The notes below the pieces were generated by a model. That model was not told the DNA's origin and did not search any database. It worked only from the letters and a program-made list of their open reading frames with translations. Both the position numbers and the translations under genes were made by a program. 64,000 nucleotides of DNA from Nitrospirota bacterium (GTDB lineage: Bacteria; Nitrospirota; UBA9217). The stretch lies in contig CAVTRN010000002.1 in assembly GCA_963737155.1 (NCBI GenBank), forward strand, positions 448,001 through 512,000, given 5' to 3'. The first letter of the stretch is position 1. Each line of letters starts with the position of its first letter. This document shows, one piece after another, positions 116-54,700 of this stretch.

Positions 116-1291
116 ATGCAGACGACCATCGCGCAGAAGAACGAGCTTCCTGTTGGGGAACTCATCACATCTAACGAGTTGGTCGCACCTCAGATTATTG
201 TGAACAAGGTAGCTGAGCGGTTTTTCGGCACAACTGACTTGGATGCAATCGCCGTGGTCGAGAAGAAAGAACCCGTCGGCCTTGCAACGAGGACGAAGCT
301 GCTTTTTACGCTGTTCCGAAGATATGGATTCGAACTTTACGGAAAATACCCAATAATAGCCTTAGCTGACAAGACTCCTCTCATCGTGCGCGAGAGTGAG
401 CGGCTTGATGTTGTCATTGACAAGGCCTTAGAGCGGCTGCCGCAGGACATCTACGACGAGATCATCGTAATCTATGCGGATGGCACCTATAAAGGCCTTT
501 TGTCGGTCAAGCAGCTCGTGATCCAGCAAAGCAACGCTCTGGCAAGCAGCATTCTTCAAAAGGAAATAGCCAGTGCTCGGGCGCAGGAGCTTGAAAAAAT
601 CAATCAGGTAAAATCGCAGTTTCTCGCCAACGTCACCCATGAACTTCGGTCTCCGGTGAATGCCATAATCGGACTTGCCGAGCTTCTGCGTATGTCGGCA
701 GAAAAGGGCTCGATCGAACAGATAAAAGAACGCCTCTCTTTTATGATCTCGAGCGCGACAAGCCTCAGAACTATTATCACGAATATCCTGGATTTGTCGA
801 AGATTGACGCAGGAAAAATGGTTGTGGCGTTTCAGGAGGTTAATGTTGTATCACTCATATCCGAAATTGCGGAAACAGCCCGCATCCTTATCGGGAAAAA
901 ACCAGTGACCGTGGAGGTAACGGCGCCTACGAAGACAGTGATGCTAAATACGGATCCCATAAAACTGAGACAAATCCTCATGAACCTTACAAGCAATGCG
1001 GCGAAATTTACCGAATCCGGCAGAATCGAGATTAAGCTCTCTGTCCTCGGAAGCAGTCTGGCAATCGCCGTCAGCGACACCGGTATTGGTATAAAAGAAG
1101 AGGACCTTGGTAAACTCTTCGCTGCCTTCAGCCAGATCGAAGACGCCAAAACAAAGAAACACGAGGGCACGGGGCTCGGACTGAAGATCAGCAAGAATCT
1201 AGTGGAGCTTATCGGCGGGACAATCTCGATCACAAGCATCTATGGAGAGGGGACGACGTTCGTCTTATCGTTTCCGTCACAAATAAATTAA
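116..1291 (+). CDS. Sensor histidine kinase with N-terminal CBS-like pair
   Basis: H-box FLANVTHELRSP, N-box NLTSNAAKFT, G1 DTGIGI and G2 GTGLGL; RBS AGGAG; no transmembrane segment. Confidence 0.9.
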   Translation: MQTTIAQKNELPVGELITSNELVAPQIIVNKVAERFFGTTDLDAIAVVEKKEPVGLATRTKLLFTLFRRYGFELYGKYPIIALADKTPLIVRESERLDVVIDKALERLPQDIYDEIIVIYADGTYKGLLSVKQLVIQQSNALASSILQKEIASARAQELEKINQVKSQFLANVTHELRSPVNAIIGLAELLRMSAEKGSIEQIKERLSFMISSATSLRTIITNILDLSKIDAGKMVVAFQEVNVVSLISEIAETARILIGKKPVTVEVTAPTKTVMLNTDPIKLRQILMNLTSNAAKFTESGRIEIKLSVLGSSLAIAVSDTGIGIKEEDLGKLFAAFSQIEDAKTKKHEGTGLGLKISKNLVELIGGTISITSIYGEGTTFVLSFPSQIN

Positions 1292-1312
1292 GAAGACAGA
1301 GAGGGTTTTACA

Positions 1313-1684
1313 ATGCAGAATAAAAAAAGAGTGCTCATAATCGATGATGACGAGTTGCATCTTTACACCACGAAAGAGCTAATTCAGAATGAATATATCG
1401 AGGTCGATACACATAAAAATTGGCCTGGCGCAACTAATCGTATAAAAGACTTCCAGCCCGATCTCGTGCTTCTCGACATAAATATGCCTGGGCTCTCCGG
1501 GGATAAGCTCGCTGAAGTCATCAAACCTTACTGCGATTTGGCGCAGACTTCGATTGTCTTTCATTCGTCCAACGACGAAGATAGCCTAAGAGAACTTGTT
1601 AAAACGCACAGTGTTAAAGGATATATTTGCAAAGGCGATATCAAGGACTTGCGAAGCAAGGTCAATCAGTATCTCAATTTATAG
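1313..1684 (+). CDS. Single-domain response regulator
   Basis: Receiver motifs LIIDDD, LLDINMPG and YICK; directly downstream of the kinase. Confidence 0.88.
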   Translation: MQNKKRVLIIDDDELHLYTTKELIQNEYIEVDTHKNWPGATNRIKDFQPDLVLLDINMPGLSGDKLAEVIKPYCDLAQTSIVFHSSNDEDSLRELVKTHSVKGYICKGDIKDLRSKVNQYLNL

Positions 1685-1764
1685 GCTGCCAGGAAGGCTC
1701 TACAAGAGGTGATCATACTTGAAGTGAAAGATGCAAGAAAATACTTGTCGTTGACAATGCGGTG

Positions 1765-3948
1765 CTACCCGTGACTTTGCCATGGATCGTATGGCGCTTG
1801 GGGCACGGCATACTCAAACATTCCCCGCGCATCGCTGCTTTTAACCGGTTTTGAGAACAGGTAGCCTTGACCATACTCGCAGTTTAGCATTTTGATCTGC
1901 GCCACCTGAATCGGCGTTTCCAGGCCTTCTGCAATTACATCAATTTTCATGTCATGCGCCAGCAATATGATTGTCCTGACGATCTGCTGGTTTTCGCCAT
2001 TTGCACCCATATTGTTGATAAACGAACGATCGATCTTGAGTCCGTCGATGGGCAGTCGGTGGAGATAACTGAGTGAGGAATAACCAGTCCCGAAGTCATC
2101 AATAAAAAGCCGGACTCCCAGCGCCTTCAAACGAGATAGCCTGCTGATCGCTTCCTCAGGGTTTTCGATGATGACGCTTTCCGTAATCTCTAGTTTCAAG
2201 GCATTGGGATTCAGCCCGGTATCGTTAAGAACTTGCTGAACGAAATCAACCAGATCAGACTGGACCATCTGCTTATTCGACATGTTGACACTTATGAAGT
2301 CTGGTGAGTACTCCATGCATTCCTTCTGCCATTCGACCATCTGCCTGCATGATTCGCGGAGTACCAGCCTGTCTATGGCTACAATCATGCCTGTTTCCTC
2401 TGCCATCTGTACAAAGGCCCCTGGCAACATGAGTCCGCGGTCAGGGTGCTGCCAGCGGACAAGGGCTTCAAATCCGGCAAGACGATTCGTATCCAGTGAG
2501 TAAATCGGCTGATAAAATACTTCAAACTCCTTGCGCGCAATGGCTCTTCTGAGATCGGTTTCCAGATGCATCCGTTCGAGAGCATGTGCGTGCATTCCCG
2601 GCTCAAAAACGGTAAATTGCTCCCGGTCGCTCGACTTTGCCTGATACATGGCTGTATCGGCATCGCGAAGAATCTGATCCGGGTTCTCATAGACCGGCGA
2701 ACCAAGCGCGATGCCGATGCTAGCGGCAGTGAATACATCGTGACCGCCCACGGTGAAGGACGACTCTAAAGCCGTGCCGATACGCTCGGCGATATATGTG
2801 GCATTGGACAGCCCGCCGATGTCCTCAAGGAGGACAACGAATTCGTCTCCTCCAAGACGGGCGATTGTATCGTGCGGTCTGAGACAGGTAACGAGGCGTT
2901 TACCGAACTCAATGAGAAGCTGATCGCCAACTCCATGACCAAGACTGTCATTGATCACTTTGAAACGATCAAGGTCGAGAAACAGCACAGCATAGAGGTA
3001 TTCTTTATGGCGCTTTGAAATCTGAATTGCATGTCTCAGACGGTCGATGAAAAGCGCTCGGTTTGGCAGGTTAGTCAATGCGTCATGAAACGCGTCATGC
3101 TGAAGCTGATTCTCGATTGTTTTCCGCAAATTGATTTCCATCAAAAGCTCCGCGGTGTGTTTCTCAACCTGTGTACGGTAAGTGCTGAGGCTATGACGCA
3201 TCTTATCGAAAGATTGAACTAGATCGGCGGTCTCATCGTTTGTATGCACTTCGATGGGGGAATCAAATTTTCCTTCCACAATATCTTGTGTCGCAGACTT
3301 GAGCTGTATCAATGGCTGTGTAATGTTGTCAGTGATGAAAATGGCCAGGATAATAATAGCGGTGATCGCGATCAGTAACATAATAAGGAGAATTATCCGA
3401 TTATTTGCAATCTTATTCACCTCCTGGCCCGTCCTGACGGCATAGATATTTATCTGCTCTCCGACCAGTCCCTGGATAACGGACTTCGTATCTCGCCACA
3501 TTGGTACTTCCTTCTGCACAAGCAAGTCCGCTGCTTCCTTTGCCTTCCCTGCGATAGCGAGGCGCTGGACCTCCAGTTGTAGTTCGTGATTTTTGGCCCA
3601 GAGATATTTTATTTTCATCAATCGATCACGCATGGAAATGGGCGCATGCTGAGATGCCTGTGCCATATATTCCCCGAATGATTTATCCGCTATTTCGTAG
3701 TTTTGCTTTGCCTTATCGTCAGAGGGATTGATTAAGATGTTTCGTGTAGCTTGGCCTGTTTGCAGGCCCTCGACATACATACCGTTCAGAGGGGCCAGCA
3801 ACTCTAAGTCCGTATCGACCATAGTCGCAATTGTCTTTTCCGCGCTACTGCTTTGAAGGAACGAAAGCGTTCCGATGACACCCATACTGACGATGGTCAG
3901 AGCGATGAGAACAGTTAATTTACCCCGAATTTTTAATTGTTTAAACAT
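1765..3948 (-). CDS. Membrane diguanylate cyclase/phosphodiesterase (periplasmic sensor-HAMP-GGDEF-EAL)
   Basis: Two TM helices, HAMP, ARLGGDEF, FEALVRW and DDFGTGYSS; start moved to the ATG at 3948 (MFKQLK). Confidence 0.92.
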   Translation of the reverse strand: MFKQLKIRGKLTVLIALTIVSMGVIGTLSFLQSSSAEKTIATMVDTDLELLAPLNGMYVEGLQTGQATRNILINPSDDKAKQNYEIADKSFGEYMAQASQHAPISMRDRLMKIKYLWAKNHELQLEVQRLAIAGKAKEAADLLVQKEVPMWRDTKSVIQGLVGEQINIYAVRTGQEVNKIANNRIILLIMLLIAITAIIILAIFITDNITQPLIQLKSATQDIVEGKFDSPIEVHTNDETADLVQSFDKMRHSLSTYRTQVEKHTAELLMEINLRKTIENQLQHDAFHDALTNLPNRALFIDRLRHAIQISKRHKEYLYAVLFLDLDRFKVINDSLGHGVGDQLLIEFGKRLVTCLRPHDTIARLGGDEFVVLLEDIGGLSNATYIAERIGTALESSFTVGGHDVFTAASIGIALGSPVYENPDQILRDADTAMYQAKSSDREQFTVFEPGMHAHALERMHLETDLRRAIARKEFEVFYQPIYSLDTNRLAGFEALVRWQHPDRGLMLPGAFVQMAEETGMIVAIDRLVLRESCRQMVEWQKECMEYSPDFISVNMSNKQMVQSDLVDFVQQVLNDTGLNPNALKLEITESVIIENPEEAISRLSRLKALGVRLFIDDFGTGYSSLSYLHRLPIDGLKIDRSFINNMGANGENQQIVRTIILLAHDMKIDVIAEGLETPIQVAQIKMLNCEYGQGYLFSKPVKSSDARGMFEYAVPQAPYDPWQSHG

Positions 3949-49770: not shown

Positions 49771-50019
49771 GCAATATAAGCGTTGAACTACGTTAAATGA
49801 CGGTGAATCAAGAACATGTACTTGGGCGTCCTTGATGCATAAGCTAAAATACGCTTTTTATGCCCGGAAAAGAGTTGTAGCGCTAGATGAAAAAATCAAT
49901 TGCATGAAATTACTATAAACTCAGGAACTTTAAAACTGATATGGTTGACAGTTGTCAATAGGGAAAATAGTCTCCTGCCCCTTTTTTTCAAAGGGTTCAT
50001 TGTTTCAATATGTTCCAAG

Positions 50020-50190
50020 GCGTAAGGAGGGACGGGGCCGACTTGTGCGACGTTTGATCACTCTGATATTCGCGGGTTTGACCGCAAGACCTTTCTTCGC
50101 CGCGGAGCTGCCTCGCTCTATTAACGGAAGTTCGGCATTGCCTTATTCCATAGTTTGGACGAGGATTCTCCGTAAACGTGGCCGCGTCCC
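50020..50190 (-). ncRNA. Bridge RNA / seekRNA of the IS1111-type element
   Basis: Four ordered guide segments AAACTAT, TAATAG, GTCT and ATATCAGA match the reconstructed target and circle-junction donor; boundaries approximate. Confidence 0.8.
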
Positions 50191-50465
50191 CGCTTATGCC
50201 TTGGAGGTTGTTTATTGTTTGCTTGCGTCCTCCTTTGTTTTGCCTCAGTCGTTTGAGTCGCCATTGTTACCGGGTGACTTCAAGTTTTTGATCCTGTTCT
50301 TTGGAAAGCTCGATGCTCCCGCCTATGTTGACGATTTGAGCGGTTTTTACCTTTGAGGGTTGATTTTTTCTTTCATAAATGCCCCAGGATTGATTTTCCA
50401 GAGACAGTCCATGCCAAGATACCCCCTCAAGTTTTGTGTGACGCCTTGTTCTTGGGTTAATCTTC

Positions 50466-51578
50466 TTATGCGCTCTGGAGATTCACTTCCCGGGCAATTG
50501 CCCATATGAAGCCGCATAGTTCCCTGGCAATGGCGGTTACCACCTTGTTCCTGGGCTTCCCTTTGGCCGTGAGTTTACGGAACCGTCCGCAGAGACGCAC
50601 CTGGGCTTTCCAGGAGATATCACAGATATTTTTCGGCAGCCCCTCCTGCCGCTTGAGGATTACCCGGCTCACTCGGGCCGGCAGACTGTAGGCTTGGGCC
50701 GCTTCAATCAATGCGCGCCTGACGTGGGTGTTTCCGGTTTTGGTGATAGCACCCCGTCTGGTGCTGTCGCCGCTGGAGTATTCGGAAGGGACCAATCCAA
50801 GGTATCCCATGAGCTGCTTGGGATTTTCAAAACGTCCCAAGTCTCCGATCTCGGCCATGGTGGTCGCGGCAGTTACATCCGCGATGCCGCGTAACGATTG
50901 GATTGCGAGTGCAACAGGGGCCGTTCGGCATGTGGGCATAAGCGTTTGAATCTGCTCCGTAAGCCGGGCCACACGCTCTGCGCATTCCTTCACCGTGTTG
51001 ATGTACTCTTGCAGCGTGATCTGCTGTGCAGGGTGTGGCATCTTGATATCAGACAACCAGCGCATGTGGGCTTGGGTCCATGCGGTTTCTCCAGAGTAAC
51101 GGTGTCCATGCCGCAGGAGCATCGCGCCTAACCTCTGCCGGGCAGTGCGATGGGCCTTGACTGCGTCTTCGCGGCATCGGGTCAGGTCTCTCATGGCTTC
51201 ATCATCCTCTTGGGGCACGTAAACAGGAGTCAGTTCTCCGGCCCGATACAGCCTGGCTAGACTTTGCGCGTCACGACGATCGGTCTTGACGCGATCGCCG
51301 CTTTTCTTGGGAATCAGCGATGGTGCCACAACCGTGCATTTGTAACCTCTCTTGGTTAGATGGCGGTATATTTCGTAACCACACGGCCCGGCTTCATAGA
51401 CGAAGTGCAGTTCTGAGCCTTTGCTTTCAAGCTTTCTGACCATTTTGTCCAATGACGCCATGTCGCCGCCGATTTTGCCGTAGTAGCGAACCTCTTGGCT
51501 GCCGCCAAATTCGGCCGTTGCTACAGCTATGGAGTTTTTTGCTGAATCGAGTCCTACGATTGTGATAGAATCTTTCAT
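50466..51578 (-). CDS. IS110-family DEDD recombinase
   Basis: GLD, YEAG and KTDRRD (DEDD); YLGLVPSEYSSG (catalytic Ser region); RBS GGAGG before ATG 51578. Confidence 0.95.
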   Translation of the reverse strand: MKDSITIVGLDSAKNSIAVATAEFGGSQEVRYYGKIGGDMASLDKMVRKLESKGSELHFVYEAGPCGYEIYRHLTKRGYKCTVVAPSLIPKKSGDRVKTDRRDAQSLARLYRAGELTPVYVPQEDDEAMRDLTRCREDAVKAHRTARQRLGAMLLRHGHRYSGETAWTQAHMRWLSDIKMPHPAQQITLQEYINTVKECAERVARLTEQIQTLMPTCRTAPVALAIQSLRGIADVTAATTMAEIGDLGRFENPKQLMGYLGLVPSEYSSGDSTRRGAITKTGNTHVRRALIEAAQAYSLPARVSRVILKRQEGLPKNICDISWKAQVRLCGRFRKLTAKGKPRNKVVTAIARELCGFIWAIAREVNLQSA

Positions 51579-51752
51579 GACCTGCCTCCTTGTTTGTGGC
51601 TCTGTATTTGGACACCCATTGCATCCAAGTATAACCCACGGTGACAAGGGGCAGGTCACTTTTTCAACTGTCAACCATTATGTCTATTATCTACAATGCT
51701 TAGAGGCGAGTCAGACAACAATAAAGGTTGGCTTTCTATTTGAGATGCGAAA

Positions 51753-54700
51753 ATGAAAAAGGTTTTAAAACAAATGAAGCTGATATCAACGAATGATGTA
51801 GGGGCCGGAGAAGAGATACCCCACAATCTTGGAAAGAACATCTCGATGCTGCAGTTGCTCACTGGTGCCGGGCGCCATCAACTGTTGGAAGATTGGAACA
51901 ATAACTCAGTGGCATATCCTGCGAAGGATCTCTGTTTGCACCAGTTGTTTGAAGAGCAGGTTGTGCGAACTCCCGATCAGGCGGCTTTGGCGTTCGAGAA
52001 AGAAAAATTGACCTATAGCGAACTTAACCGTCGCGCTGACCGACTCGCATATCATCTAAAGGGACTGGGGATTGGGCCGGATGTGGTTGTAGGGCTTTTC
52101 ATTGAGCGCTCACTGGAAATGATTGTAGGGATTTTTGGTATTCTAAAGGCAGGGGCAGCTTATGTCCCCATTGATGCCGCATATCCTCAAGAGCGTATCG
52201 GATTCATGCTAAAAGATGCCAAAGTTACATTGTTGCTCACGCAAACCAGCCTTTTGGCAAATCTGATAACTGATGTTGCGCAGACTGTATGTCTGGATTC
52301 GTTCGACTGGAATTGTCCGATAGACTTGATGCACAGTAATGCGCGCGTTGAACCAGAAAGCCTCGCCTATGTGATTTATACGAGTGGTTCCACGGGCCGC
52401 CCGAAAGGTGTCTGCATCGAACATAGAAACATCGTCAATTACGTTTTGGGCATTGCAGAACGGCTGCAACTTAAGCCCGGCATGAATCACGCGATGGTGT
52501 CGACGATTGCCGCCGACTTGGGTAATACGGTGATTTTCCCGGCATTGGTTACAGGCGGATGCTTGCATATCATCTCTCAGAAACGGGTTGAGAACCAAGA
52601 GATGCTATCTGACTACTTCAGCAAAGAAAAAATCGATGTTTTAAAAATCGTACCCTCACATCTATCAGCATTGCAGACTGGGAAAAATCCCGAACGAGTT
52701 ATGCCCCGCAGTTGTTTGATATTAGGGGGCGAGTCCTCGCGACTGGATTGGATCCGGCGATTACGTGCCTTGTCACCGAACTGCGAGATATATAACCACT
52801 ATGGTCCTACGGAAACTACAGTGGGCGTGTTGACTTATCATGTCGAATCGCAATTACCCAGTACACAGTCTGACACGCTTCCTTTGGGTAGACCTCTACC
52901 GAATAGCCGCATTTATGTACTCGATGGAAGGGGACAGCCTGTGCCTATCGGAGAGCAGGGCGAGCTTTATATCGGTGGTAACGGCATAGCCCGTGGCTAT
53001 CTCGGCCGTCCAGATCTAACCGCAGAGAAATTTGTTCCAGATCCATTCAGTTCGGACCGTGGCGGACGCATGTATAAAACCGGCGATCTTGCGCGTTGCC
53101 TGCAGGATGGCAACATCGAGTTTTGCGGTCGGATTGACCACCAGGTCAAGATACACGGCTACCGAATTGAACTCGGCGAAATTGAGGGTGCATTGCACAA
53201 GCACGGTGGTGTACGGGACGCTGTGGTGGTGGCGAGTGAAGATGAGTCCGGTAGTAAGCAGTTGGTCGCTTATGTGGTGCCGAAACGGGGAAAGCAACCG
53301 CTTTGGGGAATCAAAGCGCTTTATGTATTGCCCGATGGCTCACCGGTGGCACATCTGAACAAGAACGAGACGGACTATATCTACAACGAAATATTCACTC
53401 TGCAAGCATATCTCCGACACGGAATTACTATAAATGACGGCGACTGCATTCTAGATGCGGGTTCCAATATTGGGCTGTTTACCGTTTTTGCCAGCAGGCT
53501 GGCCCGGGGGCTGAGGATTATTTCCTGTGAGCCCAACCCTGCCGCATTTGCTTGCCTGCAGGTCAACGCCGAAGCGTGGGGCACAGGGGTGAAATGTTTG
53601 CCATTTGGCCTCTCAAGCGAGAATAAGTCAGCGGACTTGACATTTTTCGAAGGTTTATCACTCTTATCGGGGTTCTACGCTGACGCAGTGACAGAACGCG
53701 AGGTAGTCAAGAACTATGTGTTTAATCAGGAGTTGGAGTTTCAGAACAATGAGCAGTTGGCTGCAGAAATCGGAGAATTGATCGATGACCGGCTCCATGC
53801 AAAGACGGTATCCGCTAAACTGAGAACGCTATCCAGCGTTATTGCCGAGGAAGGCATTGACCGTATTGATTTGCTCAAGATCAATGTAGAAAAAAGCGAG
53901 CTGGATGTATTGGTCGGACTCAGCCCAGGTGATTGGCCCAAGATTCGTCAGTTAGTCATTGAGGTGGATCTGGAAGAAAACGTGAAGCCTATTATCGCCT
54001 TGCTGGAGCGATATGGATTTGAAGTTCTCGTCGAACAGGATCCGCTGCTGAGAAGAACCGAACTGTGTTACGTGTATGCAATTCGACAATCGGCGGCGAG
54101 ATCCGGTCTCATAGCGCAACAGCCCGCCGATGCGCACATCCGCTCACTTCCATCCGCGGACGAAAAGATATTGACATCCACGACACTACGAAAATATTTG
54201 AAAGATAGGCTGCCTCAGTACATGATTCCGTCGGCGTTCGTTCTAATGGACAAGTTTCCGCTAACGTCAAATGGCAAAATTGATCGTCAAGCGCTACCAA
54301 CTTTATCTCACGAGAAGCTACAATCCAGGCAGGATCGTGAGACCACGCACTGAGACCGAGAAGACCCTCGTTGCCATTTGGTCCGAATTGCTAAAAGTGG
54401 AGAACATCGGGATCAACAACAGTTTTTTTGATTTGGGCGGGCATTCATTACTGGCAATTAAGGTTGTATCGCGTATCCGCGATGTTTTCGGTATAGACCT
54501 GCCGATCCAGACGGTGTTTGAAAATCCTACCGTTGCTGAATTGGCTAATTTCTTGACAGAATTCGAGGGTACATGCGGAAGCATTCAACGGATCGAAGAG
54601 ACGCTCGACCAGCATCCAGCAGTCCGAAAAGGGGTTGCAGTAGTTACGGGAGATGCTGCCGGGGGCAAACAGTTGGTGGCTTATATAGTCCCGAATGATG

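Follow-up and report, generated by a model that had tools for sequence, protein, structure and literature searches.

An IS110-family insertion sequence with IS1111-type layout and a conserved guide-like RNA in a Nitrospirota genome

Introduction

RNA-guided elements of the IS110 family are already known, and their bridge recombinases are under development as programmable tools for the insertion, excision and inversion of DNA. Here, we describe a further, ordinary example of such elements, an IS110-family insertion sequence at positions 49936–51685 (minus strand) of a 64,000-nt stretch of the genome of a Nitrospirota bacterium of the lineage UBA9217 (assembly GCA_963737155.1, contig CAVTRN010000002.1, positions 448,001 to 512,000). 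This stretch is called the window below, and coordinates refer to it unless a contig or locus is named. A preliminary description, made from the letters of the window, had read the element as an IS1111-type bridge recombinase whose RNA carries four short guide segments, two for the target and two for the donor.

The closest described systems are IS621 and a set of IS1111-type elements. With IS621, in the available parts of the published accounts (PMC11208160; PMC11208158), the element has in common a recombinase with a DEDD RuvC domain, a Tnp domain and a catalytic Ser-Gly, a single predicted RNA in which the target loop lies 5′ of the donor loop and each loop would read both strands, a 2-nt core overlap, which is CT on the strand chosen in the preliminary description, and a putative circle junction promoter. 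Unlike IS621 as described there, it has its RNA 3′ of the gene with the strand relation to the gene reversed, 14-bp subterminal inverted repeats, a long donor match on the 3′ strand and a short one on the 5′ strand, and a single closing stem around both loops, and its protein is only remotely similar.

The element shares with ISEc11, ISPa11 and ISKpn4, according to the account of their seekRNAs (PMC11187229), the subterminal inverted repeats, the long non-coding region 3′ of the gene, the order of the matches, the circle junction promoter and the motif GL-P----SG, which here reads GLVPSEYSSG. In that account a top-strand match 5′ of a bottom-strand match is the IS1111-type order, the reverse of the IS110 type. 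The preliminary description had recognized the order and the CT core of IS621; both are correct, the order being the IS1111-type seekRNA order viewed from the opposite strand. Unlike the IS1111-type seekRNA elements, the locus encodes a recombinase of 370 amino acids, compared with the 330–350 given for IS1111-family recombinases (PMC11187229), which has 23.6% identity to those of the canonical IS1111-group elements ISEc11 and IS5075 over 96–97% of the length, and a hidden Markov model (HMM) of its RNA gave no match behind the ISEc11 gene.

The nearest named relatives among the tblastn matches listed are ISSfr2 (56.6% identity) and ISEc45 (47.2%), the names being those annotated on plasmid records. 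They have the same RNA 3′ of the gene and the same geometry (core, 5-nt spacer, repeat ... repeat, 3-nt spacer, core), and differ in having other repeats, other spacers (GAG in ISSfr2; AAG in the ISEc45 RNA) and other targets, and in lacking an insert of about 165 nt described below. A literature search returned no paper on the RNA of ISSfr2 or ISEc45; ISEc45 was found only in resistance-plasmid surveys and ISSfr2 not at all, and the PMC11208160 table of ISfinder elements for which bridge RNAs are predicted may list ISSfr2, ISEc45 or ISAzs32-like members.

Results

The element proper measures 1,748 bp and is bordered on both sides by the core dinucleotide CT (AG on the element's own strand), at 49936–49937 for the right junction, in recombinase orientation, and at 51684–51685 for the left. 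In that orientation the ends read flank-AG-ACATA-ATGGTTGACAGTTG ... CAACTGTCAACCAT-ATC-AG-flank, the left subterminal inverted repeat ATGGTTGACAGTTG (51665–51678, minus strand) lying 5 nt inside the core and the right one, CAACTGTCAACCAT (49941–49954, minus strand), 3 nt inside it. The repeats are 14 bp long, within the 7–17 bp range of the IS1111 group, and the 10 bp that the preliminary description placed between them in a circle agree with this geometry (3+2+5).

In the genome, which has two contigs and 4.84 Mb, 17 matches to the element were found: six full-length copies, a full relative of 70% identity recovered as two pieces, and fragments. Between the six copies there are 0–5 single-nucleotide polymorphisms, none of them in the ends or guides; their open reading frame (ORF) is intact in every case, and all are flanked by AAA|CT...CT|AT on the window's plus strand. 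One of them, copy 3 (contig C2, 232331–234080; L003), breaks a 587-codon frame that is restored only when a single copy of the core is kept. The broken gene is multi-copy in the genome, and nine uninterrupted paralogous sites read ...GGCAAGAT-AG-TTTGGGACC... with a single AG (CT on the other strand). Because these paralogous sites represent the true empty site for copy 3, they fix the boundaries and the 2-nt core: insertion takes place at a conserved dinucleotide core, and the target is not duplicated beyond it. The limits and the CT target core given in the preliminary description are thereby confirmed, as is its expectation that the other genomic copies would sit in like sites, all six lying in AAA-CT-AT. 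For the window copy itself no empty site was recovered, its right flank being found in none of 14 same-genus genomes.

Non-coding DNA occupies 528 nt on the 3′ side of the recombinase gene vs 107 nt on its 5′ side, and the 528-nt region has a fold with z = −4.78 that none of 100 shuffles equalled. To place this fold in a family, one genome per species was scanned, yielding 79 loci with proteins 51–92% identical to that of the window, of which 73 were examined and six, being partial matches, were left out. A recognizable subterminal repeat of the same type was present in 49 loci, giving, with the window, 42 distinct RNA regions; 39 of these were aligned, L060, with an internal duplication, and L063 and L065, near-copies of L062, being left out. 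For this alignment 44 pairs were predicted by RNAalifold, 28 of them with compensatory changes. Statistics were taken on 41 pairs, a 3-bp hairpin inside the donor guide having been removed: 95.1% of cells were paired vs 84.0% in column shuffles (0 of 500 reached the observed value), and sliding the partners lowered the fraction to 37.7–44.1% and the number of pairs with double changes from 28 of 41 to 11–14.

The fold and covariation analysis that the preliminary description had suggested thus delimits a conserved bridge/seek RNA structure of about 198 nt (50208–50011, minus strand), in which a long closing stem encloses two stem-loops with an internal loop in each, stem-loop 1 with the target-binding loop (50104–50171) and stem-loop 2 with the donor-binding loop (50048–50103), both on the minus strand. 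The HMM of this RNA (nhmmer) found a match behind ISSfr2 (E 8.1e-26), ISEc45 (E 6.3e-7) and seven further plasmid relatives. An Rfam scan of 49800–51800 at E ≤ 1 placed no family on the non-coding region, and Rfam matched nothing in the three related loci L016, L099 and L098. Two sub-threshold Rfam matches inside the coding region, Twister-sister (20.2 bits vs a cut-off of 34) and c4-a1b1, were rejected as chance.

The four segments of the preliminary description, AAACTAT (50156–50150), TAATAG (50123–50118), GTCT (50090–50087) and ATATCAGA (50069–50062), are all found on the minus strand at these positions and prove to be the four strands of the RNA's two internal loops. The first two were proposed as target guides, and they indeed make up both strands of the first internal loop and vary with the insertion site in relatives, except that the final T of AAACTAT, which the predicted fold puts in the inner stem, is no plain guide letter. 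The 5′ target guide, UCCAAACUA (50151–50159, minus strand), is complementary to T, the AG core and the right flank TTTGG on the element's strand, and the 3′ target guide, UUAAUAG (50118–50124, minus strand), is identical to the left flank and the AG core. Throughout the relatives, CUCG in the 5′ part of loop 1 is followed by 9 nt that are the reverse complement of T, core and right flank, and in the 3′ part the last 7 nt ahead of the closing stem equal the left flank and core.

This correspondence was evaluated by permutation on 46 independent insertions, one being kept for each distinct 5′ guide, which left 25 guide sets. At 104 of 150 right-flank positions the base matched the cognate 5′ guide (permutations: mean 46.3, standard deviation 5.7, maximum 71), and 51 of 100 left-flank positions matched the cognate 3′ guide (mean 26.3, standard deviation 4.2, maximum 44); 0 of 20,000 permutations reached the observed value on either side. 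The misses include L022 (2 of 6), L060 (0) and L089 (2), the latter two owing to a one-base register shift in the alignment, and L039 and L040, which match in part. The 70%-identical second family member of the same genome (contig C1, 1719226–1720770; L007/L009) is 1,545 bp long, lacks the insert of about 165 nt, carries the guides AACCUACUA and CUACUAG, and sits in CTATT-AG-TAGGTGG. The genome also holds fragments of further relatives (L008, L010–L015).

On the donor side, the 3′ strand of loop 2, AAUAUCAG (50063–50070, minus strand), is identical to the right end ..ATATC-AG. The segment ATATCAGA had been read as the right donor guide, and it does match the right end and vary with it, although its last A is a handshake position rather than part of the guide. 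Within the close family, the 3′ donor strand and the right-end spacer ATC are both invariant and therefore do not bear on the question. The evidence comes from more distant members: in L089 the right end is ..CAT-AAG-AG and the RNA AAUAAGAG, and L128 and L131, among eleven plasmid-borne relatives fetched, have ..CAT-GAG-AG and AUGAGAG. The right donor guide tracks the right-end spacer in three states, ATC, AAG and GAG.

The 5′ strand of the donor loop, AAGAAAGGUCU (50087–50097, minus strand), offers only GUCU (50090–50087) for pairing with AG-AC of the left end. In nearly all members GUC pairs with the second core base and the first two left-end bases, and the U that would pair with the first core base is present in only 6 of the 42 RNAs, the window included. 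The third position of this strand tracks the left end in L125, L126, L128 and L131 (C:G), in L089 (G:C) and in L129 (A:U). The GTCT of the preliminary description therefore has the right register, but the first core base is usually left unpaired, since most relatives read GTCA. We think it somewhat probable that GUCU is a real, if short, left donor guide. Other pairings for the 5′ donor strand, either to the inverted repeat or in the left end's own sense, were inspected by eye and dropped, as they were inconsistent between subclades.

Handshake guides have been described for IS621 (PMC11208158; PMC13626964), and the positions after the core-binding AG of the two 3′ guides behave like them, to the extent that these reports describe them. 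Behind the 3′ target guide (bases 50117–50116, AG, minus strand), in 41 of 42 RNAs the first base is the same as that with which the left end begins, variant states among them (C in L062, L063 and L065; U in L068). Behind the 3′ donor guide (bases 50062–50061, AG, minus strand), 16 RNAs have a base other than A at the corresponding position, and in 15 of them it is the first right-flank base; in the 24 flank-bearing RNAs with A there, the window included, the A is the same as the first left-end base, and only 6 of them agree with the flank.

Some relatives depart from a uniform core. The 5′ target guide encodes the core GG in L028, L029, L031, L036 and L054 and AA in L065, L068, L078, L079, L081, L082, L086, L091 and L128, and their 3′ target guide and donor loop encode AG. 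Their right junction is GG or AA and their left junction AG, with the exceptions of L128 (AG at both) and L031 (GG at both); L062, L063 and L073 have an AA guide, yet AG at both junctions. A GG or AA right junction with an AG left junction is the outcome expected of top-strand exchange between mismatched cores, which suggests that these relatives naturally tolerate, and perhaps use, a core mismatch between donor and target. The right flanks of L062–L065, L068 and L073 and of L028–L036 and L054 are repeated and palindrome-like (..CAGGCTGTTGAAAAAC.., ..ATTCCCGC..GCGGGAAT..), recalling the targeting of repetitive extragenic palindromic (REP) sequences by other IS110-family members.

The recombinase gene (50466–51578, minus strand) encodes a DEDD RuvC-like domain and a Tnp domain; its product matches PF01548 (E 8.2e-17, 61.8 bits) and PF02371 (E 1.2e-23, 83.8 bits), and scores 273.6 bits against a cut-off of 140 with the NCBIfam model NF033542, 'IS110 family RNA-guided transposase'. 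The only solved structures it matched are those of ISCro4 (E 2.5e-11) and IS621 (phmmer E 1.8e-10), the latter match being confined to the C-terminal 75 residues (223–297). KTDRRD (D100, D103) and SSG (S269-G270) align to ISCro4, and D11 (in GLD) and E62 (in YEAG) would complete the DEDD-plus-serine motif, judging by their position relative to D11 and E60 of IS621 (PMC11208158). Two of the genomic copies carry D126E. Other IS110-family proteins of the same genome are 22–28% identical to the recombinase, and those of ISEc11 and IS5075 are no closer. Calling the element IS1111-type is apt for its layout, with subterminal inverted repeats and an RNA 3′ of the gene, but the protein is distant. The element is an IS110-family insertion sequence with an IS1111-type layout, and its protein can be placed provisionally by identity only.

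When the ends are joined through one core, TTGACA of the right end (49953–49958, minus strand) comes to lie 18 nt upstream of CATAAT of the left end (51677–51682, minus strand), and the two would serve as the upstream part and the −10 part of a junction promoter. Both hexamers are kept in the relatives' ends, and circle-junction promoters are documented for ISEc11 and IS621 (PMC12288879).

Several observations weigh against the reading of the element as one that moves by RNA-guided recombination, and they are considered here with the rival explanations. One is that the window's matches, taken by themselves, stand out only modestly. In dinucleotide shuffles of the non-coding region, a target pair (a sense match of at least 6 nt and an antisense match of at least 6 nt, both spanning the core, within 100 nt) appeared in 293 of 5,000, a donor pair (4+6 nt) in 1,478 of 5,000 and all four matches in 97 of 5,000, and three more sense 6-mer matches fall outside the RNA structure. 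These counts speak for a rival reading in which the matches are due to chance in a short AT-rich target and the protein chooses the site. The four matches in the window alone are weak evidence, and the case is carried by the comparative data: the four-segment pattern goes beyond chance because the segments sit in conserved internal loops, of a fold in which 28 of 41 pairs covary, and because the loop letters covary with the flanks. Chance is already contradicted by the covariation across the 25 guide sets, which no permutation equalled on either side, and in a second element of this genome both the guides and the site are different. We regard it as exceedingly improbable.

A further set of observations concerns the donor loop. 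A or C stands in place of the U that would pair with the first core base in 36 of the 42 distinct RNAs; in the window, where G faces A, and in L034, position 3 of the 5′ donor strand is a mismatch, as it is in the close family; L062 and the group reading GUAA speak against left donor pairing; and the ISSfr2 type (L110, L125, L126) combines the right end ..CAT-GAG-AG with the RNA AUCAGAG, one mismatch. For ISEc11, moreover, an 82-nt seekRNA with the target part alone sufficed for movement (PMC11187229), and the donor loop may therefore not be essential in the IS1111-type architecture. The RNA could accordingly guide target choice only, the ends being recognized by the recombinase through the 14-bp repeats and stem-loop 2 being a protein-binding scaffold that does not pair. 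The conservation of the repeats and of the 5-nt and 3-nt spacers across the 49 repeat-bearing loci fits such an arrangement, as does the limit of 4 contiguous nt that the 5′ strand of loop 2 can pair in the window. It does not fit the joint variation of the 3′ donor strand and the right-end spacer (AAG in L089; GAG in L128 and L131), the tracking of the left end by the third position of the 5′ strand in the six relatives named above, or the agreement of the non-A base after the core in loop 2 with the first flank base, which would be needless for a pure scaffold. We therefore consider target guidance alone unlikely.

The sites themselves raise a third difficulty. The guides of the window element predict ..TTAAT-AG-TTTGGA, and the six sites share (A)AT-AG-TTT; beyond AAA-CT-AT, the next (fourth) flank base fits the guide in only two of the six copies, copy 3 matching five. 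AAACTAT occurs 588 times in the genome and AAACTATT 192 times, and a single unoccupied 12-mer agrees with both guides. From the matching guide bases and these counts, the working specificity would be about 7–9 bp and insertion far from saturating; either insertion is rare or other factors are at work at the 588 AAACTAT sites and at the nine unoccupied sites identical to the copy 3 target.

The nine empty sites could mean that the copies are immobile relics in which the recombinase or the RNA is silent, the insert of about 165 nt, positioned between gene and RNA, uncoupling the RNA from the gene transcript. A scan for sigma-70-like promoters on the minus strand, from the stop codon to the RNA, gave no site. 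In the single RNA run found, a peat metatranscriptome sharing 5% of words, two contigs were recovered, which are only fragments of relatives and, being contigs, cannot show transcription; one matches 50045–50084 and diverges on both sides, the other matches 50650–50870 with 10 differences. At recombinase codon 24 (window position 51509), the window copy alone has F24 and the other five copies I24. Relics are nonetheless hard to reconcile with six copies 0–5 polymorphisms apart whose reading frames are intact and whose ends and guides show no differences, and a 91%-identical relative with the same insert is also multi-copy. We hold this explanation to be quite unlikely, and an element moving by RNA-guided recombination remains the reading that we favour.

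The insert just mentioned (about 165 nt, 50290–50455, minus strand) lies immediately behind the stop codon, between it and the RNA, and is bounded by the imperfect direct repeats CCAAGAACAAGG and CCAAAGAACAGG. From stop codon to right repeat, most repeat-bearing loci have about 320–340 nt, the window 510 and the 91%-identical relative 485, and the insert is absent from the compared relatives with a non-coding region of about 320 nt. The preliminary description was correct on the length of the non-coding end (about 510 bp), whose cause is this insert and not a longer guide RNA. At the centre of the insert is a predicted core hairpin of 54 nt (50426–50373, minus strand), 79–85% identical counterparts of which lie in non-coding DNA 3′ of the recombinase gene in two further IS110-family lineages of the genus (L016 and L017, about 1501–1566; L099, L100, L101, L105 and L106, about 1501–1554), roughly 150–230 nt before the right end of those elements. 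The recombinases of these two lineages are 22% and 27–28% identical to that of the window. The core is present in the bacterium's own genome and in three same-genus genomes; a search of 301 genomes of the phylum with the insert gave matches in 4 of the 14 other same-genus genomes, the fourth being that of the 91%-identical relative with the whole insert, and one weak match of 26 nt outside the genus.

Only 1 of the 21 pairs of the insert hairpin covaries, and no Rfam family matched the insert in the window or in L016, L099 and L098. It is doubtful, though conceivable, that the insert is a portable RNA module and not junk. A functional module of this sort would be an accessory passed from one bridge-recombinase element to another, and might serve, for instance, as a signal for processing, termination or stability by which the guide RNA made from the recombinase transcript is released or protected. 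The only analogy found is ISPpu9 with its Ssr9 module (PMC12288879), which likewise has an extra RNA-like module 3′ of the recombinase gene. As described there, ISPpu9 differs in belonging to the IS110 group with an upstream bridge RNA, and its module is flanked by copies of the element ends and moves by itself, whereas the window insert has short direct repeats unrelated to the ends.

Two of the insertion sites have neighbours worth recording. The left end of the window copy lies 67 bp (51686–51752) 5′ of the start of an 866-amino-acid ORF (51753–54353), judged by eye to be an adenylation-domain gene resembling those of nonribosomal peptide synthetases, and the insertion may affect its promoter; a paralogous stretch of 71% identity occurs on contig C1 at 683361–683683. 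Copy 3 is nested in another mobile element, as read from its own locus and from 1046–3290 of locus L124. Its host ORF (562/587 amino acids) is multi-copy, with about ten copies 95–98% identical and a second set at about 59%, and adjoins an IS607-family serine recombinase gene (NF033518, 190.8 bits). The similarity of this ORF to TnpB is sub-threshold (NF040570, 42 bits vs a cut-off of 100), as were the TnpB-like matches of the intact paralogue, and neither half of the gene split by copy 3 had a Pfam match at E ≤ 0.01.

Discussion

Considering the anatomy of the element, its copies, the empty site, the conserved fold and the covariation of the guides with target and right end, we find it highly probable that this is an IS110-family element of IS1111 layout moving by RNA-guided recombination. 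Its movement might proceed as follows. The 370-amino-acid DEDD/serine recombinase would bind an RNA of about 200 nt produced from the region 3′ of its gene, and the first internal loop would read the target on both strands, UCCAAACUA pairing with T-AG-TTTGG of the element's strand and UUAAUAG with the other strand of (T)AAT-AG. The resulting site would be (A)AT-AG-TTT, which is AAA-CT-AT(T) on the window's plus strand. The second loop would hold the joined ends of the excised circle, whose junction would read ...CCATATC-AG-ACATAATGG...; there, the 3′ strand AAUAUCAG matches the right end and core, and GUCU may pair with the core and the first two left-end bases. Strand exchange would take place at the AG/CT core, and the circle, by bringing TTGACA and CATAAT to 18 nt from each other, would create a promoter for the recombinase gene. 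The number of near-identical copies suggests that the element is active today, and the natural diversity of guides and targets suggests that it can be reprogrammed.

For the genome, this is an ordinary insertion sequence, probably mobile to judge by its copies. It is a natural example in which the guides and a verified empty site can be compared directly, and it comes from an ISSfr2/ISEc45-like clade, here in an environmental lineage. The family alignment amounts to natural reprogramming data: it pairs 25 guide sets with their sites, shows the right-end spacer in three states and has handshake-like positions within an IS1111-type layout. Such data could help to set design rules for the IS1111-type architecture.

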